A DNA stretch of 64,000 nucleotides from an uncultured Planctomycetia bacterium. GTDB taxonomy: Bacteria; Omnitrophota; Gorgyraeia; Tantalellales; Tantalellaceae. The stretch's first letter is position 1, and every line of letters begins with the position of its first letter. The translations under genes and the position numbers were made by a program. Where the stretch lies: contig CAZNEE010000003.1 of NCBI GenBank assembly GCA_964572255.1, positions 25,258 to 89,257 of the forward strand, written 5' to 3'. Below, piece after piece: positions 28,144 to 64,000 of the stretch. The notes below the pieces were generated by a model. That model saw nothing but the letters and a program-made list of their open reading frames with translations, was not told where the DNA came from and searched no databases.

Positions 28144-28187
28144 AAATCTCTTTCCCGCTTATTATCGCAGCTGAACTGCCGCCAAAT

Positions 28188-29447: not shown

Positions 29448-29480
29448 TTCGGCACTCCTTCTATCCGGGTATGTGCTGCT

Positions 29481-30569: not shown

Positions 30570-30619
30570 TTTTCTCTCCCTTTCTTTTTAAATTATAAAA
30601 GGTTTAATAAACAATGATT

Positions 30620-30697
30620 TATCAGACGATTTTAAACGCAGATACCCAAATATCAGACGCATATTTACCTTGCGAAAGATTAGTGAATATCTGCGTT
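30620..30697. promoter_or_regulatory. Candidate operator region upstream of GH gene (inverted and direct repeats)
   Basis: Inverted repeat AACGCAGATA (30635-30644) / TATCTGCGTT (30688-30697), plus direct repeat TATCAGACG at 30620 and 30651. The region is 5' of the 29481-30569 gene in a locus encoding a ROK regulator. Confidence 0.3.
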
Positions 30698-30714
30698 AAC
30701 TGTTATTCTTAAAT

Positions 30715-31476: not shown

Positions 31477-31534
31477 CTCGAGCCCGCTTCCCTTTACCTA
31501 TTATATTGCCCCTCAACCAAATATTTTAAATCGA

Positions 31535-32125: not shown

Positions 32126-32165
32126 CTTAACTCCTCCTCTTTTTTAGTTTAAAACCTTATTTATA

Positions 32166-33827: not shown

Positions 33828-33840
33828 ATCCTTTCTTTTT

Positions 33841-34713: not shown

Positions 34714-34726
34714 ATTCTTCCTATTA

Positions 34727-44341: not shown

Positions 44342-47300
44342 TTACATACTTATTAATGCAGCTTCATAGCTCATTCTTTCCGCTTCAAGTTCTTCATCAA
44401 TAGCTATCGGCTTTATTCGGAAAATATAATAGCCTAATATATCCTTTTCCAGGACGGCATTCTTGTTCATGAATTCCGGAATTTTGTTATCATTTACCAT
44501 TAGTGAAATGATCACGTTGTAAAGCTGGGATTCCAGGCCTTTTTCCATCTTGACAAAAAGCATCTTGTCCTCGTTCAAAAGGTGCATACCTTTTTCGTCA
44601 TTCTGTAGCATAAGATCCCTTGTGTCGCCTATCGCTATATCTTTTGCTTCGGCCCCGTATTTTTCATTTATAAGGGTATAGATCTTGCTCACGCTGTCTG
44701 AGTCCCTGAACGAAATATCATCTTTTGATATAACATCATCCACTCCGGCCAGCTTGAGAATCCCGTCAATATTATCTTTCGTAATATCTTCACCTTCCAG
44801 TCTTTCGCGCAGTTCCCCTGCTATTCTTATATGGAGTTTTACGGGATATTCGCCTTTGCCGAGTTTCCTGTAATCATCGATCGCTTTTCTATGCTCGTTG
44901 GCAAGCCAGCGAAGCCCGTTAATATCTTTAACTCTGAATGTAGCTATCTTTGTGCCCTCAAGCTTTGATAGTTTTGCTTGAAGGTTCTCTGCGTCTTTTG
45001 CCTGAAGCCTGTTCATCTCGGCGATCCTGTCAAATTTATACTCATATACCTTTAAGTCCGAGGACCTTAAAGACCTTAATACCGCAAAGCGGTTTGATAT
45101 GATATCCAAGACTTGCTGAATTTCGCCCATGCTTTTTCCGCTAAGTGAGGTCATTTCCGGACTTCTATTAAATTCGCTTATAAATTTTGCCTTATCTTTC
45201 TCTTCAATATCCGTTATAAATTCATGTAATACTTCCTGGAAATCTCCTTCCGCGCCCTGGATCAAACCGGCGGTATACGCACCGTACTCCCTCCTGAATG
45301 CTTCTAATTTTTCCAGATTTTCTTCCTCGCTGCCTGCGCTTAAAGCCACGCCTTTTATGCCTCCTATATTGCTTTTGAGCATTTCTTCATCTATTCTCTC
45401 CTGCGAAACTCCGATAACTCCGATAACTATGCCGATCGATTCTTTCTGATGAATATAGTCATTTATTTCTTTAGGCAATTCATCGTATTTTGGACAATGG
45501 ATGCCATTAGCTATAAGGCCTATTTTTTCATGAGCTACAAGAGCTTTTCCGAGATTATAAAGTCCTTCCATCTCTGCACCGCGCTGAAGGGCTAACTTTA
45601 TGAAATCTCCTCTTAACGTGCCCGGAGCCGCTTCGAAAGCCTTGGTCGCGCCTACGACAACCCTTTTGAAGATGTCCTGGAAGGGGATGGATTCAAGCTT
45701 TTCATCATCAGGATATTCCGAATCGGCGCCAAAATCTCTAACAAGCTGTCTGCGGGATACACGCGACCTAAGAATCACCATCTCAACGCCGCGGTTAAGG
45801 CATTCTATCGAGTATTTCAGCAGCCTTACTGATTCAAGATCAGGATGTTCTTTATCCACCTTCATGAACCACGTGTAGAACTTTTCTCCGTTTCCTGTTT
45901 CAAGGGCTTCTCTTGCGTCTTTTACATCAATACCCTCTTTTTCGATATCATTAACGGAATATTCAAGTCCGCTGCCCGCGCCCCAACGTTTCAACACTTC
46001 ATCCATTCCTATAGGGCCGATCTTCTTTCCTACGCGCCCTACGTCAAAACCTTTTTCTTCCAAGTATCGTACGATACGCAGGCGAAGTTCTTCCGGTATC
46101 CCCATCTTGAACAGCATGACCGCATGATTTTCTTCTCCTGGATCTTCCTCAAGGCCTTCCCGCAAGGTTTTGTTCAAGATCTCCGCTTTGTCCTGGTCTG
46201 TGGAATATATCTCTTTTTTTAATCTCTCGAGAACATCTTTTTCAGTTACGGTTTCACCGTCGATAACACTGCCGTATGAAGATATGATCTCCCTCAGAGC
46301 TTCTTTTTTCTTCTTAAAAAGATCCACGGTTTCAGATCTCGAAAATGAATCCACAAAAAGAAGATAAATATCCGCGAACAGATCATCCGAAAGTTCTATC
46401 CCTTCCGGGAATTCAATTTCCCTTCTCACCTCAAAAAACAAAAAATCCTCAAAATCGCTTACGCTCAAAAGGACTTTTTCCGCATTTAAGAACGACGGCT
46501 GTATCTCGTTGGTTTCCTCTAGGATCATATCGTTATAGAACTTCTCGCGGTCATTCTCAGACATGCTGCGTGTTATTCTGTTCGTGCGAAGACGGCGCAT
46601 CAATTTTACTTTTCTCATTTGAGACCTGGTCCACACGGCAACTAGACTATCGAACAGTTTCTCTCGTTCCCCTTCAAGAAACGCTTCATTACTGCCGAAA
46701 AGGCGTCCGGTGATAATATAGACATCTTTCTTGTTCGGTATGATCTTCTCGACGAAATCACCTGTAATGAAAGTCCCGTTCTTTCTCTCCGTAATATCAA
46801 CATACAGGTTTTTCCTGTCAAATTTTCTGTCACTGTACTTTTCAATATCTTTTATTCTTTGGACCACTTGTTCCTTGAGGGCTTTATCTTTTACAAGCCA
46901 ATTGCCTTCCTCATCAAATAGCTGCTGCAGGAGCAGGGTCTCTTTGACCCTTATGACCCGCGCTCCGTTTTTCTTAAGATCGTCAACCAATTTCCTTATA
47001 GCCTCGGTAAGCTCTTTCTCTTTCACCTTGCCTGACCCGTCTAAATACGCGTTCGATCCTATAGTGTCTATAATGCGGATCCTCTTGCTCTCTTCCGGAA
47101 CGTAAAAAGGCATGAAAAGCTCGTCATGACCGCCGCGGCCATTTCTTAGGTTGTGTATGAAGCTCCTGAATCCAAGAGTTCCTTTGAAGCCGAATTTCCC
47201 GGAAATCCCCAAAGGCGTCTCTCTTCGCGAGTGATCCAACAGCCATCCCGATTCCATGGAAATGCGGTTGACTTTAACACTGTCCCCCATTTTTTCCTTC

Positions 47301-50300: not shown

Positions 50301-53300
50301 TTTTTCATTCTTTCTTGTATATCCTCAACCCTGTTAAATTTTCTATAACAATTAAGAAGAAATGAGTTGGACACTATATAAGTTTCTATAAGCCACTTGC
50401 TCTCTCCGCTTTTGCGTTTTTCCAACAGTTCGACAGCTTTCTCATAATCTCCCATAATAAAATAACTAATGCTTACCGCCATAACAATTGCGTGGTGATC
50501 TTTTACATTTACATCCGTTATTTTATTATACTCATCAATACATTCCTGATAACGCCCACGCAAAGCAAGTATTTCAATATTCCCCCATTTACATATTTGA
50601 TCATTATTTTCACTACGCGGATATTTTTCTTTATCATCAAGAACTTCTTTGAATACTTTTTTCGCTTCATCTAATTCAAAATTATTCGACATCCACCACC
50701 CCATATATGCTTTCATTCTATTGACCTCATATAAATCTTCTGGGGGATACTCGAGGTACTTTTTAGCTATCCGAATAGCATCTGATAAATTATTATTGTA
50801 TGAAAATTCAAAAGCAATTTTTTCATAAAACATACTTAATTCTTTTCTTACTTCATTATTATCTTTATATTTTTCTTCAATTAAATCCGCACATTTCAAC
50901 GCTTCCTCAACATTCTTCTGTTTGTAATAAATCTTTGCCAGATGTAAAAGTGCGTGAGGGGCAAATTCCTCACCCGGATGGTCCTGAGATAATTTTTTAA
51001 ATGTATCGATGGCATCCTGTTCCGATCCTATTTCCAGATACGCAAGTCCCATATTGTAAGCCGCGTATACGGCAAAATCTGTACCCGGATATGCCATGAT
51101 TATCTTCTTGCATTCGGTAATCGCCTCATCATATTTTTTATCTTTAATAAAATCCTCTATTTTGCCTTCAAGCTGAAGACGTTTAATGCGTGCTTCTTCT
51201 TCAAGTTTTTTGCGTTCTTCTGCAATACGCTGCCTTTCTTTTTCGGCTTCCTCAGCGGTTTTTCTTTTTTCTTCTTCAAGACGTTTTTGCTCTTCCTGCA
51301 AAGCAAGTTCCTTTTGTTTTGCTTCTTCAGTTTCTTTCTTTATGTAAATAAACGTACTTATGCCTGCTATAATCACCGCAATAAACAGAATTAATCCGGG
51401 AATAAAGAGTTTTTTATTTCTTTTTAGATACCGCTTGAATTTTTCTCCTCTTGATAAAGGCCTTGCTTTGATCTCACGGCCTGCCAGATACCGTTGGATG
51501 TCTTCCGCTGCTTCCTGCGCGGTCTGATAACGGTCCTCCGGGAACTTCTCTATCATTTTCATGATAATAGTGTTCAGGTCCTCATCCTTCCTTATCCCCC
51601 TGTAAATCCTGCTTCTTCTTTTTTTTACAGGAACCGGTTCTTCGTGTAAGATCTTGTTTAAAACCTCCATGACTTCTTTCCCTACAAAAGGCGGATGACT
51701 TGCGAACATTTCATATAGCATCGCACCGGTTGAATAGATGTCATTCCTCCGGGTCGGATCATTGCCTCTTGCCTGCTCCGGAGGCATATAGGAAGGCGTG
51801 CCCATTGCTGAACCTGTTTGGGTAAGCTTTACGGATGATTCGATATTTTTAGCCAGACCGAAATCCATTATCTTGATCTGACCTTTTTTATCTATGAGTA
51901 TATTGGACGGCTTTATATCGCGATGGATTATCCCCTTGCTGTGCGCGTATTCCAGCGCCTCCAAAACATCAACTATTATATTCAAAACCTGTTCTTTGCT
52001 TTCAAGCTCCTTATTTTCCATCAACTTATCCAAAGTGGTTCCTTCCACATATTCCATGGTAAAATACGGATACTCGTTGCCGTTATCTCTCAAGGTACCG
52101 AAATCATAGATCTGAACGATCCCGGGATGGGTCAATTTCGCTACCGATTGAGCTTCTTCTATGAATCTTGCGATATCTTTTTCGCTCGCATTTTCAAGGT
52201 TTTTCATCAGTTTCAACGCCACGTAACGGTCCAGTTTCGGATCATACGCCTTATAAACCACGCCCATTCCGCCTTCACCCAGTTTTTGAACAAGCTCATA
52301 CTGGCCTAACTGGCCTATTGATTGAACGTGCTTGCTTGTTGTGCGCCGGTATTTATCCAATATAGTTCCGCCGGGCGTTTCTTTAAGGTGCCTTTCTGAA
52401 GCAGGTGTTTCATCCGCCATTGTAGCGTCCGGATCACGGACTATGGTCTCTGTGAAACCGACACTTGCTTCAAATTGTTTTTTGCAGCCGGGGCAAGTGA
52501 AATTCTTGCCGATATCAGATGATTTTATACGGAGTAATTTGTCGCAATGCGGGCAATTGATGTTTATTTTCTCCGGAGCAGCCGGTTTTTGGACAGCAGC
52601 TTCTACGAACTGCTGATCTTGGGCTTCATCTTCTCTTATCCTGGTAAGCGCTGCGTCTTCACCTTTAGTTTCGGGAACCTTTTGCTCGCCCAGAACAAAT
52701 GGTTCATGGCATACAGGGCACTCCGCCTGCTGTCCTAATAGTTCCTTTTTTACGGAAAGTTTTTTCTCGCAATGCGGACATTCTATCTGGACTTTTTCCT
52801 CTCCGACCGGTTTCTGTTGAACCGGCTTCTGTTTTTGTTGTACCGGTTGTCCCGGCTTGAACCTGGTTTCAACGAACCTGCGCATTGTATCATTCGCTTT
52901 ATGGCTATCACGTATTGCGACTCTCTTGCCCAGTTCCTGTTCTTTATCATATTTTGTTGTTGCGTGCCTCTTCTCATCATGAATGAGCTTTCTTAAAAAC
53001 TTTTTATCATTTTCAGAGGAAGACATAGCTAAACTTCTGAAAGCCTTCTCGCTAAGGTAAATATATTTACCCCGAGGTTTTTTTGTCTTCGGGTCAAATC
53101 GTGCGCCAGCATGTGAAAATACCCATTTGTCCTGAGCGGGATCCACAAGTATAAAATTCGGGTCCGTAAGCGACTTGCTCTCTATTAAAATCACGCTTAT
53201 ATCGCTCGGAAGTTCTGTATACAAGTCTTTTCCGTACAGTTCTATAAGCATATTTGTAAGGCCCAGATCGCTGGAAGTATATTTATTTTGAGCGATCCCT

Positions 53301-55555
53301 TCTCCCCAGATCTCTCTTTTTGCGGCCTGCTGAATGATCCTGTTGATCTCCTGGTGAGTTTCCGGATCATACGAATTTGTTGAGCCGAGATTGGTTGAAG
53401 AGATCTCCTCTTCTCCGCCTTCGGCCGCAGTTCCGCGCTCAAGGCCTGATCCCTTGTCCTGTTCAGGAACATTCTTCTCCGATCCCCTCTCTTTTCCTCT
53501 TATACGTTCGATCCTCTCGAGGATTTCACGTCCCTGGCTGGACGATATTTCTTCATAACCCCGGCGAAGCGGCGATCCCTGGGGGGATTCCATTTTTCCG
53601 CTATCGCCGGGTTTTGAAACAAAATAGGTAACATTGCCGTCTTTTGTTCTGACCATCAGAAAAGACCCGTCTTCCACGACATAACCATCTTCCAACCTCA
53701 TTTTCTTTAACCTTATACGTTCCAGTTGCCCTCGACCCCTATATTCTTTTACGCCGAGTATCCTGGCGGCCTTAGCAGGATGGATCGTGTTAGCAATTTT
53801 CTCCGGCGAGATTTTTTCGTCCGCGAAATACTGTTTCGCATATCCGTCAAGCCATGTTTCGGCTTCACGAGACCAGCTGCCCATATCCCGCGCTTCTTTA
53901 CCCGGAAGCCAGCGAAATGCCAGGTCCAAAAGATCTTCCTCGCCGATATCCCCGGAATAAGGCTGGGCCGCAAGCTGGTATTTCCCGGTTTCTAAAAGTT
54001 TCTGGTAGGGTTTCTTCTTGTTGGTAAGAATAGCTATGTAAGGTCTTTCAGTATTATCTTCGAACTTAGGCGATACGATTAAGTAAGACAGTTTATTCTC
54101 ACGCATGAGCTTAGCAAGCCCCTTGGAGTGATAACCTCCCGTTACAAGCACAGCTACATGTTTTCCCTCTTCATGCATGCGTCTGAGTGTGTTAGAGAGC
54201 ATTGCTGAATCACGTGACTCCGCAATACGGTAAAATTCCAAAGCCTTGCTTATCCCTTTAAAAATATTGCCGAGATCATACCCCTCTTCTATTGAAACAA
54301 CGTACTTACGGCATGTTCCTTTTATGAATTCAGCGCATTTTTCAGAATTAAACTCATCCCTTTGCACCGTTAAACTTAAATATCCATCATTGTCAAGCTC
54401 TGCGCTGTAAAGGCCTTTTAATAACCCCGCGAATCTGATCCATTCGCTTAAGCGCCTTTCGTCGTTATTTCGATATAGCTTGCTTCTAATGTTCTCTTCC
54501 AGACCGGAGATCTCTTTATAAAGCGAAAAGATATCGATCTGTTCATATGATGAAACATACTTAACAAACTTTGCGAGATCTTCATAACCATCGGCATTTA
54601 ATCCGTAGGAGGAAGCGAGATTTATCAAGTGCCAGTGAAAATCGGCCTGGGAGATCTTGTTCTGCTTGAATTGAATGGATTCCAGGACAAGGATCTCAAG
54701 GTCTTTTTTATTAAGGGTGCCGCTTAACTCATCGATAAGCCTTTTTCTTTCATTATTCGCCTTGATGAAATTTATCTCTTTCTCGGCCTTTATGGTCTGG
54801 ATAAGTCTGGTGATGTTGGTATATTTTTCCGTAGAGATGCCTTTTTTTGCCGCTATTTTCTCGATGGTGCCCCAATAGTCCGAAAACCCTATTCCGCCTT
54901 CTTTATGCAGTTTTGATGCATCTTCGAGTGCTTTTAATCCGCTGCTGTAAACCTTCTTGGAAAGCTCTTCCAGCTGGAAAAGCAAATTATCGACCTGGCT
55001 TACATAAAATGCGCGCTCCTCGACGATCTTTCTGAAACTTTCAACATTTTTGTTATAAAGTTCCTCATTTTCCACACCATAAAGCGCGATATCATCTTCA
55101 TCCGAGATTATCGTGAAAAATTCACCCGCGCTCATTCTGCCTTCAGCGAGAAGCTCCCCGGCGATCCTTTCTCTCGCATCCTTATCGGGTATGGCTTTGA
55201 TCAAAGACGTGTTTAAATACCCTTCCGCGCCCTCCAAAGCAATGAGCTTTACGTCGTAATTTGCCACCAGTTCATCAATTATCTGTGTTATTGAATACTG
55301 CGCTGAAAGTGACGCGTGTGCATCCTGTATGTTTATGATAGTATCCTTACCGCCGTTAAGTAAGATCTCATTTACCTTGCCGGCATTATAAGAAATATCT
55401 ATGTGATTTGAGTTTGATTGTGTTTGGAGGTTGTAAAAACTCTTAAGATCTGACCAAACCGGCTGCCCTTCTTGCACCCAGCCGATCTGCTCATGAGTGA
55501 AGACCAGTATTATTATTATAGATATTATTCTAAAGAGTTTGCTTCTTCGAAGCAT
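44342..55555 (-). CDS. Giant multidomain protein 2 (3737 aa)
   Basis: Single ORF. Domains in order: N-terminal TM; a TraB/GumN/Tiki-like module homologous to giant 1 (nt 53995-55345); a low-complexity linker; a double zinc ribbon (CPHCEKK..CPVC and CPHCDK..CPGC; 52480-52800); a Hanks-type kinase (GEGGMGVVYKA, HRDIKPSNIL, DFGLA, GTPSYMPPE; 51480-52310); a TM helix; a K/E coiled coil; TPR-like repeats; and about 1800 aa of unknown function. Confidence 0.75.
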   Translation of the reverse strand: MLRRSKLFRIISIIIILVFTHEQIGWVQEGQPVWSDLKSFYNLQTQSNSNHIDISYNAGKVNEILLNGGKDTIINIQDAHASLSAQYSITQIIDELVANYDVKLIALEGAEGYLNTSLIKAIPDKDARERIAGELLAEGRMSAGEFFTIISDEDDIALYGVENEELYNKNVESFRKIVEERAFYVSQVDNLLFQLEELSKKVYSSGLKALEDASKLHKEGGIGFSDYWGTIEKIAAKKGISTEKYTNITRLIQTIKAEKEINFIKANNERKRLIDELSGTLNKKDLEILVLESIQFKQNKISQADFHWHLINLASSYGLNADGYEDLAKFVKYVSSYEQIDIFSLYKEISGLEENIRSKLYRNNDERRLSEWIRFAGLLKGLYSAELDNDGYLSLTVQRDEFNSEKCAEFIKGTCRKYVVSIEEGYDLGNIFKGISKALEFYRIAESRDSAMLSNTLRRMHEEGKHVAVLVTGGYHSKGLAKLMRENKLSYLIVSPKFEDNTERPYIAILTNKKKPYQKLLETGKYQLAAQPYSGDIGEEDLLDLAFRWLPGKEARDMGSWSREAETWLDGYAKQYFADEKISPEKIANTIHPAKAARILGVKEYRGRGQLERIRLKKMRLEDGYVVEDGSFLMVRTKDGNVTYFVSKPGDSGKMESPQGSPLRRGYEEISSSQGREILERIERIRGKERGSEKNVPEQDKGSGLERGTAAEGGEEEISSTNLGSTNSYDPETHQEINRIIQQAAKREIWGEGIAQNKYTSSDLGLTNMLIELYGKDLYTELPSDISVILIESKSLTDPNFILVDPAQDKWVFSHAGARFDPKTKKPRGKYIYLSEKAFRSLAMSSSENDKKFLRKLIHDEKRHATTKYDKEQELGKRVAIRDSHKANDTMRRFVETRFKPGQPVQQKQKPVQQKPVGEEKVQIECPHCEKKLSVKKELLGQQAECPVCHEPFVLGEQKVPETKGEDAALTRIREDEAQDQQFVEAAVQKPAAPEKININCPHCDKLLRIKSSDIGKNFTCPGCKKQFEASVGFTETIVRDPDATMADETPASERHLKETPGGTILDKYRRTTSKHVQSIGQLGQYELVQKLGEGGMGVVYKAYDPKLDRYVALKLMKNLENASEKDIARFIEEAQSVAKLTHPGIVQIYDFGTLRDNGNEYPYFTMEYVEGTTLDKLMENKELESKEQVLNIIVDVLEALEYAHSKGIIHRDIKPSNILIDKKGQIKIMDFGLAKNIESSVKLTQTGSAMGTPSYMPPEQARGNDPTRRNDIYSTGAMLYEMFASHPPFVGKEVMEVLNKILHEEPVPVKKRRSRIYRGIRKDEDLNTIIMKMIEKFPEDRYQTAQEAAEDIQRYLAGREIKARPLSRGEKFKRYLKRNKKLFIPGLILFIAVIIAGISTFIYIKKETEEAKQKELALQEEQKRLEEEKRKTAEEAEKERQRIAEERKKLEEEARIKRLQLEGKIEDFIKDKKYDEAITECKKIIMAYPGTDFAVYAAYNMGLAYLEIGSEQDAIDTFKKLSQDHPGEEFAPHALLHLAKIYYKQKNVEEALKCADLIEEKYKDNNEVRKELSMFYEKIAFEFSYNNNLSDAIRIAKKYLEYPPEDLYEVNRMKAYMGWWMSNNFELDEAKKVFKEVLDDKEKYPRSENNDQICKWGNIEILALRGRYQECIDEYNKITDVNVKDHHAIVMAVSISYFIMGDYEKAVELLEKRKSGESKWLIETYIVSNSFLLNCYRKFNRVEDIQERMKKIREALEKSDTFIFWKIYSDKGVIEDRKKAIEMIKGNPRRASFSCYICAERYYSEGKKEEAAHFLLRYLEFKTGKGWLYPLVEEMLEDCLKDKVIREKYKSRIEKLKADHPDLFAGIFSLGGLVALGALSAEEEKKKIQSNKRKFNNAVKNLKSSDEKKKIKGARALKALGMPEAISELIKALSDVNINNKIKIEIIEALAELKRVPLPKKDAEKSPSSIMGIINKRLEKYGLRKKSRIIGPYHEIKIELDPEDLPIGIEDLKNEIGKDFKKAGVVVEMSHSSNMIGVKIDPYSENLTKFWRALGSLDFRFTKDGKYYRPFTMYEIVEKVEKRADMFLDGLEIELLEMESNGVMDKDPDLYEEKYNEYRDLKFFVYGDGTETNPGLINIIKHPDQLRPLSDKEYKWYKRTHYGVDSMITMIDGEKYISYGNSPIIRTESIERTVVEDSGEKWKMTPLCSFNDIVRVTRSNPYFTHFMENIEKDWYLRSYVAKRADGSFYRTYYFNPEGEYASKTVKEVKGIKKWVYLARAAGSVFQTAFIMDQIRGEEKSNHEMFFISRDTLGDYYEYRHFVISSLKEIREEEDKYEGIYPELEKKVLEDLDQKYTSGEERWREVLDGIWWQLKTSGILNGVKYGEHISVVDEIAVGTYDYMFKYIVEKKSLEESIKKREDSIQFRMDKYKESREEAEAKVKAVVAPIYVDIFIGDARENLREYPVLQQDIIERDYGMVSERARRIKTAVSKLADFQPHPVMVHHNAKIPATKNRFRIRLEESDVLVSSFLNALLGINGLLEYHDLIVFYPLEKLLKEDPSPEIRKAAALALSKVDVEIFEEKAKEVLNEIAGTEEDKSVLEAASRSVSDIIERQVARNIEESKEQNKEEVKAEVKGLYKSIPIFMQAAKSPYSEVRRLVLKRLAELHEDFFYDADKSLTLEEQIAGLLHESSVLRKISENDFDEGIEDIVKEVENSYQTNLNEGRVTIIGLFGGRDVGKEYVSNCIAHKLKEKMGDSVKVNRISMESGWLLDHSRRETPLGISGKFGFKGTLGFRSFIHNLRNGRGGHDELFMPFYVPEESKRIRIIDTIGSNAYLDGSGKVKEKELTEAIRKLVDDLKKNGARVIRVKETLLLQQLFDEEGNWLVKDKALKEQVVQRIKDIEKYSDRKFDRKNLYVDITERKNGTFITGDFVEKIIPNKKDVYIITGRLFGSNEAFLEGEREKLFDSLVAVWTRSQMRKVKLMRRLRTNRITRSMSENDREKFYNDMILEETNEIQPSFLNAEKVLLSVSDFEDFLFFEVRREIEFPEGIELSDDLFADIYLLFVDSFSRSETVDLFKKKKEALREIISSYGSVIDGETVTEKDVLERLKKEIYSTDQDKAEILNKTLREGLEEDPGEENHAVMLFKMGIPEELRLRIVRYLEEKGFDVGRVGKKIGPIGMDEVLKRWGAGSGLEYSVNDIEKEGIDVKDAREALETGNGEKFYTWFMKVDKEHPDLESVRLLKYSIECLNRGVEMVILRSRVSRRQLVRDFGADSEYPDDEKLESIPFQDIFKRVVVGATKAFEAAPGTLRGDFIKLALQRGAEMEGLYNLGKALVAHEKIGLIANGIHCPKYDELPKEINDYIHQKESIGIVIGVIGVSQERIDEEMLKSNIGGIKGVALSAGSEEENLEKLEAFRREYGAYTAGLIQGAEGDFQEVLHEFITDIEEKDKAKFISEFNRSPEMTSLSGKSMGEIQQVLDIISNRFAVLRSLRSSDLKVYEYKFDRIAEMNRLQAKDAENLQAKLSKLEGTKIATFRVKDINGLRWLANEHRKAIDDYRKLGKGEYPVKLHIRIAGELRERLEGEDITKDNIDGILKLAGVDDVISKDDISFRDSDSVSKIYTLINEKYGAEAKDIAIGDTRDLMLQNDEKGMHLLNEDKMLFVKMEKGLESQLYNVIISLMVNDNKIPEFMNKNAVLEKDILGYYIFRIKPIAIDEELEAERMSYEAALISM

Positions 55556-55726
55556 CTAATCCCCCCAGTTAAGGAAAAATGGTTATATCTTGCTCTTTAT
55601 TATTTTAACTTCTTAGGTATATATAATATAATAAATACTAAGTTTTGTCAATTCTAATCTATCTAACTTTTTTAATACTTAATATAGCTTATCTCCTTCT
55701 AAATAAAGTACTTACATAAAACGTCC

Positions 55727-55877: not shown

Positions 55878-58800
55878 TTACGCCATGATGGCTAACTGTT
55901 CGTATATCTCCTTCTCTTCATCAAGTCTCTTCATGTCGATCTTTTCGATATTCGGCAGATATACGTACCAGCTGTCGTATCCTTGCTTCTGGATGACCCG
56001 ACCCAAACTTGCAGGTATCTTGCCGTCATTGGCTATGATCTCTATGGCTGTAAAGAGAAGCTGTGATACTATTCCGGCACCCTGCATCTGGACATATACA
56101 GGTTTCTCCTGTTTCAGTATATTGAAGTCGGTCTGCGACACCAGGAGATTCTCGGTATCGGCTATAATAACATCGCTTGCATCCTTAACGTTAAATCTTC
56201 CCTTCGCAAGTTCCAAAGTCCTCTCAAGCGTCATGTCCTCTTTAGTCACTATCGTCACATTTGATATATCCAGGTACATATCCAGCTCTGTTGATTTCAT
56301 GGCACCGGCAAGGTTCTTATCGGTTATATTTTCATCCAGGATCCTTACCTGTATGAACTCTGATGCAGCTTCTTTAGTGATGCCCATGTCTTTTATGGCC
56401 TGTCCGATGAACCTCATATCTGCTCCGCTCTTGGCCAGGATGCTTATATAGTTGGCTTCTCCGTCATTTGGCCCTTGAACGGCGTATCTTTCAGCTTCGC
56501 TTGAGATCTCATATCTTGAAAGCACTTTGCCGTGTATATTGTTGAACCTGAGGTCATAGATGTTCTTCTTGGCCACGCCGTAAGAGACCGCCTCAGGCAT
56601 TACTATTGTATAAGCTTCCAATATATTCTTTATCTCTTCTTCCAGCTCGTCGATCTTCTTGAGCTTTTCGTTTATCAGCTGTGTCGTTAAGTTGAAAACA
56701 GCCGGGTTGACAAGCGTGAATACGGCCCTGAGTAAAGGAGCTGCCGCTTCAAGAGATTTTTCAAGCTCCTGGAGTTCTTCCATCTTGCCTGCGATCTCTT
56801 CCGGTGAAAGCTCGAATACATCGGGGTGTCCAAGGACATAAGCGTTCCTTTTAACATCCCGGGCTTTCGTGATAAGTTCAGCCGCGATATCGATCACTTC
56901 CTTGTCTTCAAGATTATCGAAATCGGTATCAAGAAGAACACCGACACCGTTCTTCGCGCTTATGTCTTTTTTCTGCATGAGGACCCTGAGATTTTCCATC
57001 ATCTCTTCTGCATCAGCACCGGCAACTCTCACAACCTCAATAACCCCGTTCATGTCCCTTATTCCCTTTACTATATCTTCTTTGACATCCGCGTTTTCGG
57101 AAATAGCGACTATTACAGGGAATTCCGGCATGGATCCTTTAGTCCTGATGCCTGCCGCGGCAAACGGAGCAAATACACCTATGCCTATGCTTGCGATAAT
57201 TATGTCGATTATATCTCCGTTTGTATCGTACTCTATAGTTTGAATAAGAGTGCCTGTATCGTCATATTCGTATTGAAAATGCACCTGCTGGGCATCCGGA
57301 TCGGGATAATACTCAAACGTCCTGTAAGTGTTATCGGGCCTTGTTTCCTGCTGGAGCCTTCCGTACCACTCGCCTGTATCCGGATTCTGGAAGAAATCCT
57401 CATCTATGTGAAGATATACCGTACCGTCCGCAAGGGTTGTTGTCTCGACACGGCCTGACGGATAATAGGTATATAACCTGTCCGCTAAAAAGTCCTGCAC
57501 GTTATTTATCGAACCGTCATTGTTATATTCTATGATCTTGACAAGCGTGCCGTCGGCGGCATACTCCCTTTCATACTGTTTCTGGGCATCATCCGGAAAC
57601 GGGAAGTATTCGAACGTCCTGTAAGTGCCGTCGGTCCTTGTCTCCCGCTGGAGCCTTCCGTACCATATGCTCGTATCGGGATTCTCATAAAAATCCTCAT
57701 CCAAATATCTATGGATCGTTCCGTCGTCAAAAGTCGTGCTCTGAATGCGTCCTGAAGCGTAATATGTATATATCTGATTTAACGTAAGGTCCTGCACGCT
57801 GTTTATTGTTCCGTCCGGATTATACACGATCACTTTCAGGAGATTATCGACCGCATCGTATTCTCTTTCGATATAGATCTGGTCAGTTCCTACATAGTAT
57901 TCAAATGTCCTGTAAGTGTTGTCGGGCCTTGTCTCCCGCTCAAGCCTTCCGTACCAGATCCCTGTATCCGGGTTCTGATAGAAAGCTTCATCCATGTGAA
58001 GATATACCGTACCGTCCGCAAGGGTTGTTGTAGCAATGAGGCCTGATACCGGATAATAGGTATATACTCTGCCCGCCAACAGATCCTGCACGCTGATTAT
58101 CGAACCGTCTGTATCATACTCGGTGATCTTGACAAGCGTGCCGTCGGCGGCATAATCATACTCGAAATGCGCCTGATGGGCATCCGGATCGGGATAATAT
58201 TCAAATGTCCTGTAAGTGCCGTCGGGCCTGTTCTCTCTTTCGAGTCTTCCGTACCAAACTTCCGTATTCGGATCCTGGTAGAAAGCTTCGTCTATGAGTA
58301 TATGTACGGTGCCGGCCGCTATATCATCAGTCGTACCGAAAACCAGGTCAATACCCGGGTCATCAACATGGTAAGTGATACTCTGTATGCGCCTTGAACC
58401 AAAATAATACTGGATCGTCCTTTCATGCGTACCACCAGCAGTATATAAGTTTTCTTGGTATATATGGTCGGTCCTTTTGCCCGTAGTAGGATGACTGTAA
58501 TATGTAAATGTATTATAAGTACCGTCCGGATTGATTATCTTTGTAATCCGGCCGTATCCGTCATTGTAGAAGTCATAGTCTTCACGGTAGATAACGGTGC
58601 CGTCCGGATGTTCTTCCTTTCTTACCAGGCCGGAATCGTAAAGATGGTACGTGATGCCGTTTTCCGTGAAAGTCTTGGCTTTCCACTCACCGTAATCTCC
58701 ATCACAACCGAACGGGAACGGTGCTCTACCGTCTCTCATGATCATTGCCGGAGCTACGATGAAGAAGTAAACTATTAAGAACAATCTGCTGAGAGTCCTT

Positions 58801-61800
58801 GTCGGGTTGCCGCTGGTTTTAGCGACTTTGTATATCGAATATCCTAAAAGACTTACGCCGGCAATACCTAAGCCTACGTACCATGAACCGGCAAGCACGG
58901 CCGCTGTAACACCTGAGATCGCAGCTACCGCCGCAAGAAATCCAACACGCACAGATCCTTTCTCGCCAGCTTTTGCATCCGGGCTCGTTTCTGTCTTTTC
59001 CTCAACCCTTCCGTACCGGTCGCCTGTATCCGGATCCTGGTGAAAATCTTCATCTTTAAATTTATAAGTTGTCCCGTCCTCGATCTCTTCCTTTTCCTCT
59101 TTTTCTTTTTCATCCATCTTTTCAAGCTGATCCAGGGTCTTTATGAGGAGAGATCTTCCTTCGCCTGAATAGATATCATAACCGAGATCCCAGATCTTCT
59201 TTATTCTTTTCTTAAGCTCATCTGCGGATATCTCCTCCGAAGCGAGGATGTTCTTTATATATTTCGGAGCCTCTTCGCTTGTGTTGACCCCTATGATCTT
59301 TAAGATCTCCTCTTTTGTCTCGGCTCTTGCAACCTGTTCCTCTTTCTCTAAAGGTATAACAGCTTCGGCGCCGGCTTCCTTCAAAAGCGCGATGACCTTG
59401 TTTTCTATATCCTTCTTTAAAGCGTTATAGCTGGCTTCCGACATCGTAAGGTTCTTCAGGTTGCCCAATATGACAAATTCCACCGGATATGTCTTATCAG
59501 AAAAAACCTCCAGGAATCGCTTCTGCGTCCTTGTATTGAACGCGACCATGTCATCTTTTCTTTCGGCGATCCTATCAAGCTGTTCCGGTGTCTTTGAAAG
59601 AAGCGTTCTTCCTTCGGCTTTTTCGTATATCTTGTAGCCAAGATCGGCTATCTTTGTTATTCTCGTCCTCAGGTCATCGACCGTGACCGCATCTGAGGCC
59701 AGCAATTCCTTGATGTAATTCGCGGCGTTCTCGCCTGTCTCTATCCCCAAATCCTGGAGGACCTCTTCTTTGGTCAGTGCTCCTTCAATAAGCTGTACGG
59801 CTTCTTCTTTAGAGACATATGCATCTTCTTCGATCATCTTGAATGCCGGGACCCGCTTATCAAGTGAAGGTCCCTGCTGAATGCGCGGAGCTTTGACCTC
59901 CACATATCCTTCATACTTTCCTCTGGTGTATGTGCCCACGCCTATCTTTATCTTGACCCATTTAACTTTGGACGGATCGAACCGGCTGTCTTCCTTGACC
60001 TGGGGCTTGATCCTCAGAATAACCCATTTGTTGACGTTGTCCCTGTCGATCTCGATAACGTCGCCGTAATCTTCCTCGTAATCTTCGTCAACGGTAACAA
60101 CATGCATCCAATTCCTCTGGCCGTCCAGATCATTAAGGAATGATTCAGGGACTCTGACGAAACAGATATATTCTTTACCGGTCATGTCGATAGAAGGTTT
60201 GCCAAAATCATAAGTAGCATAACCGGCTCTTTTCTCTTCGTCTGCGGCATCAAGTTTCACTTCCAGCTTGAACTTATCGCTCGCCGTCGTGGTCACGATG
60301 CTTGAGACAGCTTTATCGCCTTCGGTGGAATTTGTCCAACCGCTTGCGTCTAAAGTATTTGTGATATTGATGTCCAGCTGTTCATTAAACTTCTCGCCCG
60401 CTTTTATGGATTCCATGAGTTCTGACACAGCGCCCACAGCCGTAGAGTACTGGCGTTCCGCTTCGGTCCTTGTAATATTGCCTTCGAGAAAAGTATGGTC
60501 GACCCTTTCTAAAAGAAGCTTCCTGAAATCCTCAAGCGCCATGTTGAGTATTTCCCACTGGGATTTTGCATACTCGGGATTCCTGTTTACGTTCTTCTTA
60601 CACTCTTGTGCCTGGGAAATTATCCATCCCATATAATAGCTTGTGGATTTTCCCGTAACTTTGAGAACCAACATGTCTTCCCATGTCCTCAATCCTTCTT
60701 GAGTCCTTCCTATCGCGTAGTCTTTATTTTTCTGGGCCTTTTCAATATATTCGATCTCCTCCGGAGAAAGAGCTCTCTGATTTCCGATGCCGAACCTCAC
60801 TCTGGCGGCATCCGTGGAACCCTTGCCTTCAATGTAGGCATCGACGTAGGGCTGGACCTCCTGGCCGTATTTGAGATCCATGTATTCGTTCACAGACCAC
60901 TTATATCCCGGCCAAAGCGCAATAATATAGAAAGGTATGAATATGAACATTATCCACAACCAGCCTCTTTGGCCCTGCCATTCTTTTTCCTCCATGAAAT
61001 AATGATTTACAGAATTGGTCCATTTGCTGATTTTACCCGGCACATCTTTCAGCCATCTGAATGTAATGATGCACCATAAAAAGCTGAATGAGCCTTTAAG
61101 CCTGTCGGTTATTTTTTCAGCAAAAGACCTTTGTTTGATCAACTTTTCGACCCTTTTCAGTTCTTCTTTAAGATCATCTATCAGATCTTGGGTTATGCCC
61201 TCATAAACGCCTTCCGGCACAGCGGTTCTCTGCTCGAGCTTACGTAAGCGTTTTTCCAGAACTTTTATGGCTTTCTTGTTATAACTTATGTCGCCGAAGA
61301 ACCCTCTTACTTTATAGACTTCGTTAGCGGCTACCGCGGCTTTTATGTTCGCGAATTTATTCCTTACCCTCTTCATCATTCTTTCTGAGAATGTCTTGCT
61401 TATACGCACCTTCTGGGCGCCTAACTCTTTCTCAACCGGTGTATGGCTGGTCTTGGGCCAATAGCCGTCATCGACATCCTTGCTTAAGATCTGGTGCAGT
61501 GTGATGATGGACGACGGTAAAGCGTTCAGATAATACTTGGGAGTAAAGAATGCGTTCAAAGTGTAATACAGCCTGTAATACGCGACGGAGCCGACCTTGA
61601 GCCCCAGGTATCTGTCAAGTATCCTGCCTAACCACGGGATCCTCCCCATCAAGTATAAAACGGTCGTTATCGCATAAAGCGCGCATAAGGTGCCGCCTAT
61701 ACCCAAAAGGGCTATTGAGGCGAAAAGGCCTACAGGCCCGAACATCGCTATCAGGAAAGTCGTGTACTTTACGCCTAAAAAGAGCATGATGCCGCCGTAA

Positions 61801-64000
61801 AATGCCGGCCTCCATATAAGGTACACCTTTCCTTTTAATATCCTGTCATTTCTTTTAAGCGTTCTGTTTATCTCTTTTCTGACCTCTTTGAGGAGTACGA
61901 TCATCTCCGGATCCTGTTCCCTGTTAGAATTGCTTTTGCTAAGTTTTTTATCGATAAGCGCGATGATATACCTTGCCACGCTTTCTATTTCTTCGTAAGG
62001 AACAGTGGTTTCCTCTTTTGACTTGTTCTTCGCTATGATGCGCTTTAGAGATTCGACCTTGTAATTATCATCTTTTAAGATATACGGCAATATCTTGTTC
62101 TTTTTGGGCCTGGTCGGATCGCTTTCCCAGTCTTTATCCGCAAGATGCGATAAAGTATCCTTCAGCCCCTGGCTCAGTCCTTCTCTTATCAGTGCATCGT
62201 CATCCGGTGCTTCCTTTAATGTCGCGATCACGGCCATGACGATCTGAATTACCGGAAAAAGAACGAACAGGACAACACCGACCAAAGTTGTCGGGATCCA
62301 TCCCAGGACCTGCGGAATCACCGTCTTGAGCCATACCGCGAGAGAAGCCAGCATCGGGCCTATACCGCCCATGTTGGGTAAAATGGGGAATATCGTTATG
62401 GCCAGAAAGTAAGCTATTGTTATACCGAATGTTACGGCCGTAAAGAGGCCCATCGCCTTACCGCTTATAAGGTACACTGAATGGAAAAAGTTTATCGGGC
62501 CCATCTGCCTCACGGCGTCTCTCTGCCACTCTTCATTCTGTACCAGCGGTTTCATGCCTTGCGTCATGCCGAAAAGCTGGCCCAATGCCGTCCCGATAAG
62601 GCCCACTAATATAGAGCCGCCGAGAACGGCCAAAAGAGCGCCTAATACCGGAGCGAGGCCGATCGAAGCTATGGAAGCAACGCCTGACAATGCGGCAGTT
62701 ATAGCCGGAGCGGCCAATGTGTGCCCCAGAAAACCTCCGATGACGCCGAACACTGTACCGGAAACCACACCGGCAGCATTTAAACTCCAGCTTATCAATA
62801 ATCTATTGACGGCTCTTCCTAATTTATAGAACATGTAGCCGCCCAGGACAAAACCTATTAATGCGGCTATGATGCCTACTCCTATCAGGCCGGGTCCGCC
62901 GAAAACAGCCCAGGCCCATCCGGCAGCCAGATGTGCTCCCCACAACAACCATGCTGACGCTATGGACGCAATGATGACTGAAAGTGTCTGGAGCGTCTTC
63001 CAGCGTGAATCCTGCTTCCACCAGCCTGTTCCCTCCGGAGGCCTTGCATCTTCAAATGTCGAGGACCTGAATCCCAGAAGCCTGTAAACCCTCATACCGA
63101 CAACATCAGAGCCCGGTTTTGCCACAAATATAACGCCTGCCACAAATGCCATGCCGGCTCCAAGGATAACGAACGCAGGCAGTGAGATGACGCTTGAAAC
63201 AGCTGCCGCAACAACGGTAACCTGTGTAAGCAGGTACAATATCGATCCTATGAATCCGGAAAATATTAAACCGCCTAAAAATACGCCGATCTCATGCCAG
63301 AAGCCCTTGCCCAATCCGGGTAAGCCCTTTTCGCTTGCGTTCTGTCCGTGATCAGAGTCTTCGATAATGTTATATTGAGGATGATATCCCAAATGGCTGA
63401 GCCAGTTAAGATAATCCCGCAGCATTCTCTTTGCCGCGGCCATCTCCTTCTTCTCTGATCCTGCGATAAGCTGCTGGCCGCTCTGCTGCCTTTGCAGCCT
63501 TCTTTTTATCTCGACGATCTTATGGTCAAATTCGGCACGTTTTACATGGCCGTCCCGAAGCCTTCCATCCTGATCGGCAGCGGTCTTATGGCCGGTATAC
63601 ATATCCCATCTGAAAGTATTGGTCGTGCCGCCGAGGAAGAACACCGGCGAATATTGTATCCAGCCGATCTTCTTGCCTATGACCGCGCCTATAAATCCGC
63701 CGACAAACCCCGAAATTATAAGCCCTAAAATGACTGCTCCAGGCGGTGTAATGGCCGCGCCGAACAAAGCACAGCTTATAAATGCGCCTGTAACAGCGGA
63801 GACCAGGCCCATTATTACGGCAAGAGGCGTACGATGCGCCACTAACCCGTCCTGGACATCTTTCCATGTACGATAGTCCAGATTAGAAAGGGTGTTTTCC
63901 TGGAAAGGCAGAAGGTGCTGAACTCCCTGTGTGATCGCGGGAACGCATCTTACATCAAGTTCGCTCTTCACATACACATCCTCATCATGATATATGGATA
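55878..64000 (-). CDS. Giant membrane protein 3 (at least 2699 aa, N-terminus probably outside window)
   Basis: The reading frame stays open to the window edge upstream of the listed GTG start. It has more than 12 glycine-rich TM segments in two clusters, coiled-coil regions, and four tandem 100-aa repeats with YD/RHS-like spacing (TYRTFEYY ... EYDxxGTL). Confidence 0.7.
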   Translation of the reverse strand, partial: SIYHDEDVYVKSELDVRCVPAITQGVQHLLPFQENTLSNLDYRTWKDVQDGLVAHRTPLAVIMGLVSAVTGAFISCALFGAAITPPGAVILGLIISGFVGGFIGAVIGKKIGWIQYSPVFFLGGTTNTFRWDMYTGHKTAADQDGRLRDGHVKRAEFDHKIVEIKRRLQRQQSGQQLIAGSEKKEMAAAKRMLRDYLNWLSHLGYHPQYNIIEDSDHGQNASEKGLPGLGKGFWHEIGVFLGGLIFSGFIGSILYLLTQVTVVAAAVSSVISLPAFVILGAGMAFVAGVIFVAKPGSDVVGMRVYRLLGFRSSTFEDARPPEGTGWWKQDSRWKTLQTLSVIIASIASAWLLWGAHLAAGWAWAVFGGPGLIGVGIIAALIGFVLGGYMFYKLGRAVNRLLISWSLNAAGVVSGTVFGVIGGFLGHTLAAPAITAALSGVASIASIGLAPVLGALLAVLGGSILVGLIGTALGQLFGMTQGMKPLVQNEEWQRDAVRQMGPINFFHSVYLISGKAMGLFTAVTFGITIAYFLAITIFPILPNMGGIGPMLASLAVWLKTVIPQVLGWIPTTLVGVVLFVLFPVIQIVMAVIATLKEAPDDDALIREGLSQGLKDTLSHLADKDWESDPTRPKKNKILPYILKDDNYKVESLKRIIAKNKSKEETTVPYEEIESVARYIIALIDKKLSKSNSNREQDPEMIVLLKEVRKEINRTLKRNDRILKGKVYLIWRPAFYGGIMLFLGVKYTTFLIAMFGPVGLFASIALLGIGGTLCALYAITTVLYLMGRIPWLGRILDRYLGLKVGSVAYYRLYYTLNAFFTPKYYLNALPSSIITLHQILSKDVDDGYWPKTSHTPVEKELGAQKVRISKTFSERMMKRVRNKFANIKAAVAANEVYKVRGFFGDISYNKKAIKVLEKRLRKLEQRTAVPEGVYEGITQDLIDDLKEELKRVEKLIKQRSFAEKITDRLKGSFSFLWCIITFRWLKDVPGKISKWTNSVNHYFMEEKEWQGQRGWLWIMFIFIPFYIIALWPGYKWSVNEYMDLKYGQEVQPYVDAYIEGKGSTDAARVRFGIGNQRALSPEEIEYIEKAQKNKDYAIGRTQEGLRTWEDMLVLKVTGKSTSYYMGWIISQAQECKKNVNRNPEYAKSQWEILNMALEDFRKLLLERVDHTFLEGNITRTEAERQYSTAVGAVSELMESIKAGEKFNEQLDINITNTLDASGWTNSTEGDKAVSSIVTTTASDKFKLEVKLDAADEEKRAGYATYDFGKPSIDMTGKEYICFVRVPESFLNDLDGQRNWMHVVTVDEDYEEDYGDVIEIDRDNVNKWVILRIKPQVKEDSRFDPSKVKWVKIKIGVGTYTRGKYEGYVEVKAPRIQQGPSLDKRVPAFKMIEEDAYVSKEEAVQLIEGALTKEEVLQDLGIETGENAANYIKELLASDAVTVDDLRTRITKIADLGYKIYEKAEGRTLLSKTPEQLDRIAERKDDMVAFNTRTQKRFLEVFSDKTYPVEFVILGNLKNLTMSEASYNALKKDIENKVIALLKEAGAEAVIPLEKEEQVARAETKEEILKIIGVNTSEEAPKYIKNILASEEISADELKKRIKKIWDLGYDIYSGEGRSLLIKTLDQLEKMDEKEKEEKEEIEDGTTYKFKDEDFHQDPDTGDRYGRVEEKTETSPDAKAGEKGSVRVGFLAAVAAISGVTAAVLAGSWYVGLGIAGVSLLGYSIYKVAKTSGNPTRTLSRLFLIVYFFIVAPAMIMRDGRAPFPFGCDGDYGEWKAKTFTENGITYHLYDSGLVRKEEHPDGTVIYREDYDFYNDGYGRITKIINPDGTYNTFTYYSHPTTGKRTDHIYQENLYTAGGTHERTIQYYFGSRRIQSITYHVDDPGIDLVFGTTDDIAAGTVHILIDEAFYQDPNTEVWYGRLERENRPDGTYRTFEYYPDPDAHQAHFEYDYAADGTLVKITEYDTDGSIISVQDLLAGRVYTYYPVSGLIATTTLADGTVYLHMDEAFYQNPDTGIWYGRLERETRPDNTYRTFEYYVGTDQIYIEREYDAVDNLLKVIVYNPDGTINSVQDLTLNQIYTYYASGRIQSTTFDDGTIHRYLDEDFYENPDTSIWYGRLQRETRTDGTYRTFEYFPFPDDAQKQYEREYAADGTLVKIIEYNNDGSINNVQDFLADRLYTYYPSGRVETTTLADGTVYLHIDEDFFQNPDTGEWYGRLQQETRPDNTYRTFEYYPDPDAQQVHFQYEYDDTGTLIQTIEYDTNGDIIDIIIASIGIGVFAPFAAAGIRTKGSMPEFPVIVAISENADVKEDIVKGIRDMNGVIEVVRVAGADAEEMMENLRVLMQKKDISAKNGVGVLLDTDFDNLEDKEVIDIAAELITKARDVKRNAYVLGHPDVFELSPEEIAGKMEELQELEKSLEAAAPLLRAVFTLVNPAVFNLTTQLINEKLKKIDELEEEIKNILEAYTIVMPEAVSYGVAKKNIYDLRFNNIHGKVLSRYEISSEAERYAVQGPNDGEANYISILAKSGADMRFIGQAIKDMGITKEAASEFIQVRILDENITDKNLAGAMKSTELDMYLDISNVTIVTKEDMTLERTLELAKGRFNVKDASDVIIADTENLLVSQTDFNILKQEKPVYVQMQGAGIVSQLLFTAIEIIANDGKIPASLGRVIQKQGYDSWYVYLPNIEKIDMKRLDEEKEIYEQLAIMA
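57150..58500 (-). repeat. Four tandem about 300-bp coding repeats inside giant gene 3
   Basis: Near-identical DNA blocks (for example CGAACGTCCTGTAAGTG..GTCGG.CCTTGT.TCC.GCTGGAGCCTTCCGTACCA) recur at 57311, 57611, 57911 and 58211. They encode the repeat DE(A/D)FYQ(D/N)P(D/N)T..WYGRL.RE.R.D.TYRTFEY. Confidence 0.8.

Follow-up and report, generated by a model that had tools for sequence, protein, structure and literature searches.

The stretch of DNA considered here, hereafter the window, comprises 64,000 nucleotides of contig CAZNEE010000003.1 from an uncultured bacterium of the Omnitrophota, the phylum with the most giant genes in published surveys (bioRxiv 10.1101/2023.11.21.568195; bioRxiv 10.64898/2026.06.07.730766). 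Its end is occupied by the C-terminal part of a giant gene on the minus strand (55878..64000), which forms a tandem with two further giants, the three products measuring 9,042, 3,737 and 2,762 amino acids (aa), and which is the subject of the present report. The window holds the C-terminal 2,706 aa of the first product, about 30%, and this part probably belongs to a polytopic inner-membrane giant of the Omnitrophota. It is built of modules that recur in other order in further giants of the phylum, namely a helix block, a domain at aa ~1205-1375, a module of about 150 aa, an array of beta-hairpins and a terminal module, the last of which is also present at the end of the next gene. The AcrB protein encoded in the window was 74-78% identical to sequences of metagenome-assembled genomes (MAGs) of Candidatus Omnitrophota and more distant from all others, which is a placement by one gene and not phylogenomics.

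The gene and its modules

An open reading frame (ORF) and frame scan of the window showed a minus-strand frame that ends with TAA at 55878-55880 and is open through base 64000; the GTG at 63977, given as the start by the ORF lister, is not the true start. On the 217-kb parent contig, k141_541867 (ENA ERZ27256770) and Ga0310068_1000029 (JGI), the predicted product has 9,042 aa and its start lies about 19 kb past the window edge, which by calculation puts the gene at roughly 153,264-180,392 of the ENA record, and 1,555 additional upstream bases (519 aa; L001) likewise contain no stop in this frame and encode more candidate helices, judged by hydropathy only. The window and both assemblies agreed with 0 mismatches over 19.6 kb. 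An earlier note on this DNA had described a giant polytopic membrane protein whose gene runs beyond the window, and this description is borne out. A further upstream extension of the gene was not found in the JGI metagenome collection. Amino acids of the 2,706-aa part are numbered from the window edge, and the search for domains of the published giant subtypes covered 3,225 aa (2,706 aa in the window and 519 aa upstream), not the N-terminal ~5,800 aa. With the whole fragment as query, a word-indexed protein search returned one distant match (P0001; relatives are referred to by such P numbers) and not the protein itself, and no relatives were found among GTDB representative genomes. The protein is composed as follows:

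55878..64000, minus strand: C-terminal 2,706 codons and stop of the 9,042-aa gene (open frame; contig gene calls)
61635..63818, minus strand: main membrane block, aa 61-788, about 15 glycine-rich helices in five clusters (hydropathy; zipper enrichment)
62157..63104, minus strand: conserved multi-helix module, aa 299-614 (BLASTP to P0054, P0014 and P0001)
60909..60965, minus strand: lone predicted helix, aa 1012-1030 (hydropathy)
59874..60386, minus strand: domain without family match, aa ~1205-1375 (weak conservation in P0054 and P0001)
59079..59816, minus strand: two copies of a ~150-aa module, aa 1395-1640 (DNA repeat D3, spacing 453 bp)
58959..59054, minus strand: orphan 32-aa repeat fragment beginning DEDFHQDPDTGDRYGRVEEK, aa 1649-1680, upstream of the hydrophobic trio (DNA family D2)
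58737..58946, minus strand: hydrophobic trio, aa 1685-1754, two or three helices (hydropathy)
57213..58730, minus strand: repeat domain, aa 1757-2262, about 19 hairpins of about 25 aa (DUF2963; AlphaFold2; Foldseek; lysine/arginine (K/R) flanks)
57147..57203, minus strand: last predicted helix, aa 2266-2284, followed by RTK (hydropathy)
55881..57140, minus strand: C-terminal module, aa 2287-2706 (420 aa), predicted to be cytoplasmic (AlphaFold2; topology)
55881..56747, minus strand: conserved core and family signature of this module, aa 2418-2706 (HMMER family, alignment A2, local hmmsearch)

Several of these parts have counterparts in other giants. The multi-helix module matched aa 2595-2919 of P0054 with 29% identity over 325 aa (BLASTP, E 9e-32), and further matches were obtained to aa 5338-5581 of P0014 and to aa 1956-2062 of P0001 (39% over 114 aa). 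The soluble stretch aa 1031-1684 holds the domain at aa ~1205-1375 and the duplicated ~150-aa module; a PDB sequence search with aa 1034-1681 was empty or at chance level. Amino acids 999-1391 matched aa 3379-3743 of P0054 (BLASTP, E 2e-4) and, weakly and in colinear order, P0001, and the domain at aa ~1205-1375, which reads as beta-rich from its sequence, had no match in Pfam, NCBIfam or PDB. The ~150-aa module reads as helical; aa 1395-1640 were 56% identical to aa 711-939 of the 7,013-aa P0014, and either copy matched alone. Blocks shared with P0014, P0054, P0006, P0008, P0022 and P0001 lie at non-colinear positions, and the giants are thus better described as patchworks of rearranged modules than as colinear orthologues. 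P0001 (3,581 aa, partial) is labelled Patescibacteria group bacterium, a label unlike that of any other relative and possibly a result of binning.

The C-terminal module proved the most informative part: an exhaustive HMMER search over 1.84 billion cluster representatives yielded 57 at E <= 1e-3, 21 of them at E <= 1e-30, and in every one checked (about 20) the match ended at most 12 residues from the C-terminus. All nine members with a taxon label were Omnitrophota (9/9), and one MAG contained at least three members. Carriers are often very large (7,255, 7,013, 5,101, 4,996, 4,607, 3,585 and 3,468 aa) and of diverse content, including kinase, phosphotransferase system (PTS) enzyme I (EI), PKD, peptidoglycan-binding, HEAT or ARMT1 domains. 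The same domain ends the 3,737-aa giant encoded next in the window (aa 3474-3735), where it was recovered with the A2 profile at E 7e-33 and is separated from the last helix by about 1,590 aa; the terminal domains of the two giants are about 27% identical pairwise. Against the 9,042-aa protein fragment the A2 profile gave E 1.7e-102, its own sequence being a member of A2. In the 2,762-aa giant the domain was absent from a profile search of the window. It also occurs alone, P0016 being a stand-alone copy of 358 aa inside a 31-kb contig, in a neighbourhood that shows synteny with the surroundings of the 4,607-aa carrier P0022. Giants cluster with one another around family members, and no other conserved gene neighbourhood was found.

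An AlphaFold2 model of the module, run on an alignment of 5 sequences (an A2 search of the word-indexed database gave 3 proteins), consists of a small alpha/beta subdomain, a long helical hairpin, which is the sole one seen, and a conserved alpha/beta core; pLDDT (predicted local distance difference test) was 67.5 overall and mostly 77-91 over model residues 231-330 (aa 2517-2616). No match to the module was found in Pfam, NCBIfam or PDB, by sequence or by fold, nor with the 30-member family profile or with members scanned singly, and the NCBIfam scan gave chance-level matches only. The earlier note had spoken of a C-terminal domain of 500 aa and unknown function; 420 aa follow the last helix, so that the length has to be corrected. 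The (nearly) invariant residues in A2 are Gly, Ala, Ser, Gln, Pro and Tyr only, acidic and basic residues, His and Cys being absent from the invariant set. Published giants were reported to bear SecA domains after C-terminal anchors (bioRxiv 10.1101/2023.11.21.568195); a SecA-like identity was considered for the terminal domain and rejected, as neither a SecA_DEAD match nor a Walker A motif was found in it. The absence of invariant charged or catalytic-type residues, the strictly final position, the presence on two of the three giants and the stand-alone occurrence lead us to favour a role of the module in binding or assembly over catalysis. Term searches of both Omnitrophota survey papers found no mention of a strictly C-terminal module, which seems to represent a domain family not yet described.

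Some observations on individual family members may be added. Loci L056:6001-7077 and L053:10001-23824 share a common order of AdoMet decarboxylase, arginase, LeuRS, a Vgb-lyase-like gene, ComEA and ComEC; the stand-alone 358-aa copy lies between comEA and comEC, and in the other contig a 4,607-aa giant follows comEC. In locus L055:1-29009 three giants of 9,408, 3,002 and 4,199 aa lie in tandem. The first and the third extend beyond the ends of the locus, the genes of the first and second have 4 bases in common, and the C-terminal domain is found in the middle giant. P0002 (666 aa) combines hairpin repeats, a segment reading as beta-helix-like, a short hydrophobic segment, which was not called by the hydropathy scan, and the C-terminal domain. 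Upstream of it (L051:1-240) another frame encodes the hairpin-repeat-like peptide VIEYERDSNGTLRYKTIF, from which it is probable that a frameshift or an assembly error has split a longer gene and that P0002 is its tail.

The repeat domain and the membrane topology

The hairpins of the repeat domain, each about 25 aa long, are grouped by fours into a super-repeat of about 99 aa with a high content of Tyr, Asp, Thr and Gly; DG[TS] turns recur in the sequence. The copies are:

58293..58592, minus strand: R0, degenerate copy, aa 1803-1902 (39-42% identical to R1-R4)
57993..58292, minus strand: R1, full copy, aa 1903-2002 (repeat alignment)
57702..57992, minus strand: R2, full copy, aa 2003-2099 (repeat alignment)
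57405..57701, minus strand: R3, full copy, aa 2100-2198 (closest to R1: 70% protein, 76% DNA)
57201..57404, minus strand: R4, truncated copy of 68 aa, aa 2199-2266, entering the last helix (repeat alignment)

A DNA periodicity of about 297 bp runs across the domain, in agreement with the tandem period of about 300 bp described earlier. The four perfect or near-identical 100-aa repeats of that description were not recovered, since the copies amount to three full ones, one truncated, one degenerate and one fragment, and identity among R1-R4 is 57-70% for protein, 65-76% for DNA and 44-63% at third codon positions. The orphan fragment upstream of the trio is a fifth member of DNA family D2 and shares 47-57% identity with the starts of R1-R4. 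The longest exact repeat in the DNA lies between R1 and R3 and measures 38 bp, and Tandem Repeats Finder reported nothing in the region at score 50 or at score 30. Such divergence speaks for an old duplication: the domain of about 19 hairpins arose by duplication of the four-hairpin unit of ~99 aa, and the array is old. An exact match of at most 38 bp is not long enough to lead an assembly astray and offers a poor basis for frequent recombination; it is also shorter than the k-mer implied by the contig name k141, so that the repeats were neither collapsed nor inflated in assembly.

Among known families the repeats match DUF2963 (PF11178, 'Scorpion' repeats). The Pfam model scored 33.2 bits on the repeat domain, against a gathering cut-off of 22.6, in 4 stretches, one per super-repeat, and 28.7 bits on the whole fragment; a match to MORN_2 remained below threshold. 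Both systems are arrays of hairpins of about 25-26 residues, and the carriers of DUF2963 are secreted or extracytoplasmic; here, however, the hairpins form four-hairpin super-repeats of ~99 aa in a membrane protein of 9,042 aa from a different phylum, and the model covers only about 30 of each 99 residues. To our knowledge, Pfam describes the family as restricted to Mollicutes. The literature found on DUF2963 deals with small secreted phytoplasma effectors alone, in which the units are beta-hairpins of about 26 aa (bioRxiv 10.1101/2025.07.14.664665).

The earlier note had called the units YD-like beta-hairpins. Their hairpin nature is supported by the DUF2963 match and by an AlphaFold2 model from the single sequence, which is all-beta with 38 strands in 506 aa at pLDDT 54, and the top five Foldseek matches of this model were Rhs or teneurin structures (E 7.5e-6 to 2.2e-4; TM-scores 0.09-0.19). 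Rhs/YD proteins and teneurins thus share Tyr/Asp/Gly-rich antiparallel hairpins with the domain and supply its best local structural matches; however, no match to RHS_repeat (PF05593) at E <= 10 in Pfam or to the YD-repeat (TIGR01643) at E <= 1 in NCBIfam was obtained, the Rhs core motif DPxGL is absent, the domain is too short for a shell, and a helix precedes the terminal domain. A PDB sequence search with the repeat domain was empty or at chance level. 'YD-like hairpins' is a fair name for the local structure and not for family membership.

Hydropathy scans gave about 20 candidate membrane helices within the 2,706 aa (a TopPred-like pick gave 20). The hydrophobic clusters reported earlier, including the second one, which is the trio beginning with VGFLAAVAAISGVTAAV at aa 1685, lie where they had been placed, and the count exceeds the at least 12 helices then claimed. 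Glycine makes up 14.5% of the hydrophobic clusters and 6.2% of the remaining protein. The glycine-zipper character ascribed to the helices could be confirmed in part: the extended pattern [GAS]xxxGxxx[GAS] was observed 18 times versus 8.7 +/- 2.8 in shuffled sequences (5 of 2,000 shuffles reached 18), whereas plain GxxxG showed no excess (13 versus 10.8 +/- 2.8 in composition-matched shuffles). The helices thus resemble glycine-zipper helices with GxxxGxxxG packing in their Gly content and in a two-fold excess of the extended pattern, but differ from glycine-zipper families in that no Pfam Gly-zipper match was found.

In the 20-helix model K+R sums amount to 39 in even loops versus 12 in odd loops. 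By the positive-inside rule, the K/R-rich loop KVAKTSGNPTRT, which precedes the last helix of the trio, and the RTK at the start of the terminal module would be cytoplasmic, and the repeat domain, which is acidic with few K/R at its flanks, would lie outside. The earlier note had held that cytoplasmic repeats would be at odds with a surface role, and the positive-inside count places them outside. A scan of the family's long members placed the final helix 370-450 aa before the C-terminus in about 16 of them, with K/R behind it in most; here it ends 421 aa before the C-terminus. Between the Ser/Thr kinase (aa 1086-1348) and the terminal domain of the 3,737-aa giant two helices are predicted. A Ser/Thr kinase domain requires cytoplasmic ATP, and with two helices in between both domains would be on the same, cytoplasmic, side. 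The K/R behind the last helix in most relatives and the side of the neighbour's kinase agree with the assigned topology.

Readings of the protein

The 9,042-aa protein belongs to the known class of giant, membrane-threaded, modular Omnitrophota proteins. Features in common with the giants termed 'Archaeovorin' and 'Dockerin-type' (West-Roberts et al., 2023) are the phylum, helices along the chain, Pfam-free stretches, diverged internal repeats, Rhs-like beta structure, tandem genes and downstream transport and hydrolase genes, and the kinase, HEAT/TPR and phosphoglucomutase content of the neighbours fits the published domain modules. Surveys of such giants described large Pfam-free regions and Rhs-like antiparallel beta structures (bioRxiv 10.1101/2023.11.21.568195; bioRxiv 10.64898/2026.06.07.730766), genes for solute-binding proteins, ABC permeases and glycoside hydrolases downstream (bioRxiv 10.1101/2023.11.21.568195), and, in a catalogue of 916 Omnitrophota proteins, membrane helices or a signal peptide in 94% (Nielsen & Lui, 2026, bioRxiv 10.64898/2026.06.07.730766). 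With 9,042 aa the protein lies under the cut-offs of >30,000 aa (West-Roberts et al.) and >=10,000 aa (Nielsen & Lui), the latter of which is just missed and is a convention, not a biological boundary. Archaeovorins are defined by SecA_DEAD together with a glycosyltransferase, methyltransferase, hydrolase, peptidase or NUDIX domain and Dockerin-type giants by Dockerin together with TSP3; none of these domains, nor a C39 or S8 peptidase, was found in the 3,225 aa, and the protein is therefore not assignable to either subtype from the part available. The case shows the build of Omnitrophota giants, with shuffled membrane-threaded modules, an old hairpin domain predicted to face outward and a common terminal domain. 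The earlier note had passed over the documented Omnitrophota giants as well as the terminal module common to the next gene.

In the proposed arrangement the chain would cross the membrane about 20 times in the window part, as judged from hydropathy and the positive-inside count; the acidic repeat domain would be periplasmic, between the helix trio and the final single helix, and the last 420 aa would be cytoplasmic. The protein could then serve as a membrane scaffold with a non-enzymatic binding or spacer domain on its outer face, the target of which may be a host, prey or glycan surface, and the terminal module might connect the scaffold with other giants or with partners in the cytoplasm. 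The downstream mannan-uptake genes and the published hypothesis of attachment and cell-wall degradation suggest glycans or a partner cell as targets. As a specific functional reading, a membrane scaffold or adhesion protein is put forward tentatively and has at best well under an even chance of being correct.

The strongest challenge to this arrangement comes from a receptor, in which periplasmic hairpins would bind a ligand and the last helix would signal to an enzymatic or signalling output at the C-terminus. The order of helix, 500-aa outer domain, helix and conserved cytoplasmic domain is indeed sensor-like, the neighbouring giant joins a Ser/Thr kinase, a helix-flanked TPR segment and the same terminal domain, and a strand-Gly-loop-helix element could bind nucleotide or phosphate. 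But the roughly 1,590 aa between last helix and terminal domain in the 3,737-aa giant, and the soluble stand-alone P0016, by which the module needs no adjacent membrane helix, do not fit such signalling, nor do the missing invariant acidic, basic, His or Cys residues and the lack of a match to any known output domain, and we regard a receptor as improbable. A polymorphic toxin of Rhs/YD type, whose repeat shell encloses the C-terminal domain and delivers it as the toxin, would explain the Tyr/Asp/Gly richness, the recurring DG[TS] turns and the best Foldseek matches, which are Rhs effectors of T6SS (the type VI secretion system) as well as teneurins. It is made very doubtful by the same matches, whose TM-scores are 0.09-0.19 and whose structures comprise 1,021-1,772 residues, as about 500 aa are too short for a shell, and also by the failure of the RHS_repeat and YD models, the absence of DPxGL, the membrane helix between repeats and C-terminal domain, and a C-terminal domain that is conserved rather than polymorphic and occurs on repeat-free proteins and alone.

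Equally small is the probability of the explanation given in the earlier note, that of a surface protein with near-identical 300-bp repeats, recently expanded, recombination-prone and possibly variable in phase or size. A tandem period of ~297 bp exists, the repeat domain is predicted outside the cytoplasm and one exact match of 38 bp connects R1 and R3; however, between a quarter and a third of the nucleotides differ from copy to copy, and even more at third positions, Tandem Repeats Finder was empty even at score 30, copy number is equal in the two assemblies with 0 mismatches, and surveys found the repeats of long Omnitrophota genes mostly diverged, or dissolved, at the nucleotide level (bioRxiv 10.64898/2026.06.07.730766). 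Recent expansion and phase variation, and with them a phase-variable surface antigen, are unsupported by the sequence. Least weight of all can be given to the possibility that there is no real gene and the frame is spurious or an assembly chimera. The sequence is metagenomic and most of the protein has no database match, but the ENA and JGI assemblies are identical, the neighbouring gene is present on 7 contigs, modules have homologues in other giants with E down to 1e-71, the hydropathy pattern is coherent along the chain, and the longest internal exact repeat, 38 bp, is far under the k-mer size.

Several points nevertheless weigh against the membrane-spanning giant with periplasmic hairpins and a cytoplasmic binding module as set out above. 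Its architecture is read from the last ~30% of the protein, the N-terminal 70% being outside view. Topology is based on a hydropathy and positive-inside count of our own design rather than on TMHMM or DeepTMHMM, and helix number is ambiguous: one or two helices may lie in the 38-aa stretch 1685-1722, the hydrophobic 17 aa at 258-274, treated as a 'loop', may also form a helix, and a miscount would flip the side of everything upstream. The 20-helix model moreover puts the repeat fragment aa 1649-1680 in the cytoplasm, opposite the repeats that it resembles. A TolC-like protein and the AcrB pump, both encoded in the window, indicate a diderm envelope, so that 'outside the cytoplasm' means the periplasm and not necessarily the cell surface. 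With pLDDT 54 and TM-scores of 0.09-0.19, the repeat model supports the local hairpin pattern alone. In the modelled terminal module, the strand-Gly-loop-helix element VYVQMQGAGIVSQLL, which is conserved, may form a loop that binds a ligand, and a remote kinship to a known Rossmann-like enzyme fold may still be hidden at the moderate confidence of the model (pLDDT 67.5).

The protein is ordinary for its phylum, and the terminal module, common to dozens of otherwise unrelated large proteins, the next gene included, is the one element worth following up. At ~300 aa, and with a stand-alone form, it offers a tractable target within proteins too large to study, and a practical marker by which the true 3' end of a giant gene can be recognised where metagenomes contain it in fragments. 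A more speculative proposal, which we consider unlikely though not far-fetched, is that the module of ~290-400 aa is specific to Omnitrophota and serves very large proteins as a tag for docking or completion. Being translated last, it would then be carried by full-length chains only, could join separately encoded giants such as those of 9,042 and 3,737 aa in one membrane complex, or could couple giants to a common cytoplasmic partner, for example the stand-alone homologue; giant proteins would thereby have a general principle of assembly or quality control.

Neighbouring genes and minor features

The neighbouring genes mentioned above are arranged as follows:

44342-55555, minus strand: 3,737-aa giant with N-terminal hydrophobic helix, kinase, helix, TPR, second helix, HEAT and shared C-terminal domain
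44351..45136, minus strand: C-terminal domain ending the 3,737-aa giant (hmmsearch with A2 profile)
35840-44128, minus strand: 2,762-aa third giant with a phosphoglucomutase/phosphomannomutase domain set and one N-terminal hydrophobic helix
26905-35638, minus strand: mannan-utilisation-like cluster directly downstream of the giants (family matches)

The phosphoglucomutase/phosphomannomutase set of the third giant is complete and lies mid-protein, at aa 1428-1979. The cluster at 26905-35638 encodes two ABC permeases (BPD_transp_1), two GH113 mannanases, one of which has an F5/8 type C domain, a ROK protein, a solute-binding protein (SBP_bac_1) and two small proteins that carry mannan-binding modules of the mannanase galactose-binding or CBM27 type. 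In the 322-bp spacer before the 3,737-aa gene one sigma-70-like site was found (55623-55651, minus strand; TTGACA-17 nt-TATTAT, 11/12), the number of promoter-like sites there being not above shuffle expectation, and a scan of the same spacer gave no terminator-like site after the 9,042-aa gene.

Elsewhere in the window, a tmRNA gene (150 bits) adjoins smpB (20237-21083, minus strand), and its tag peptide was read by ARAGORN as VPQFAGTGPLVSALGY, the end of which is not the usual ALAA-type tail. A fluoride riboswitch (59 bits; 14121-14183, minus strand) lies downstream of a gene of the chromate-transporter family (14529-15050).

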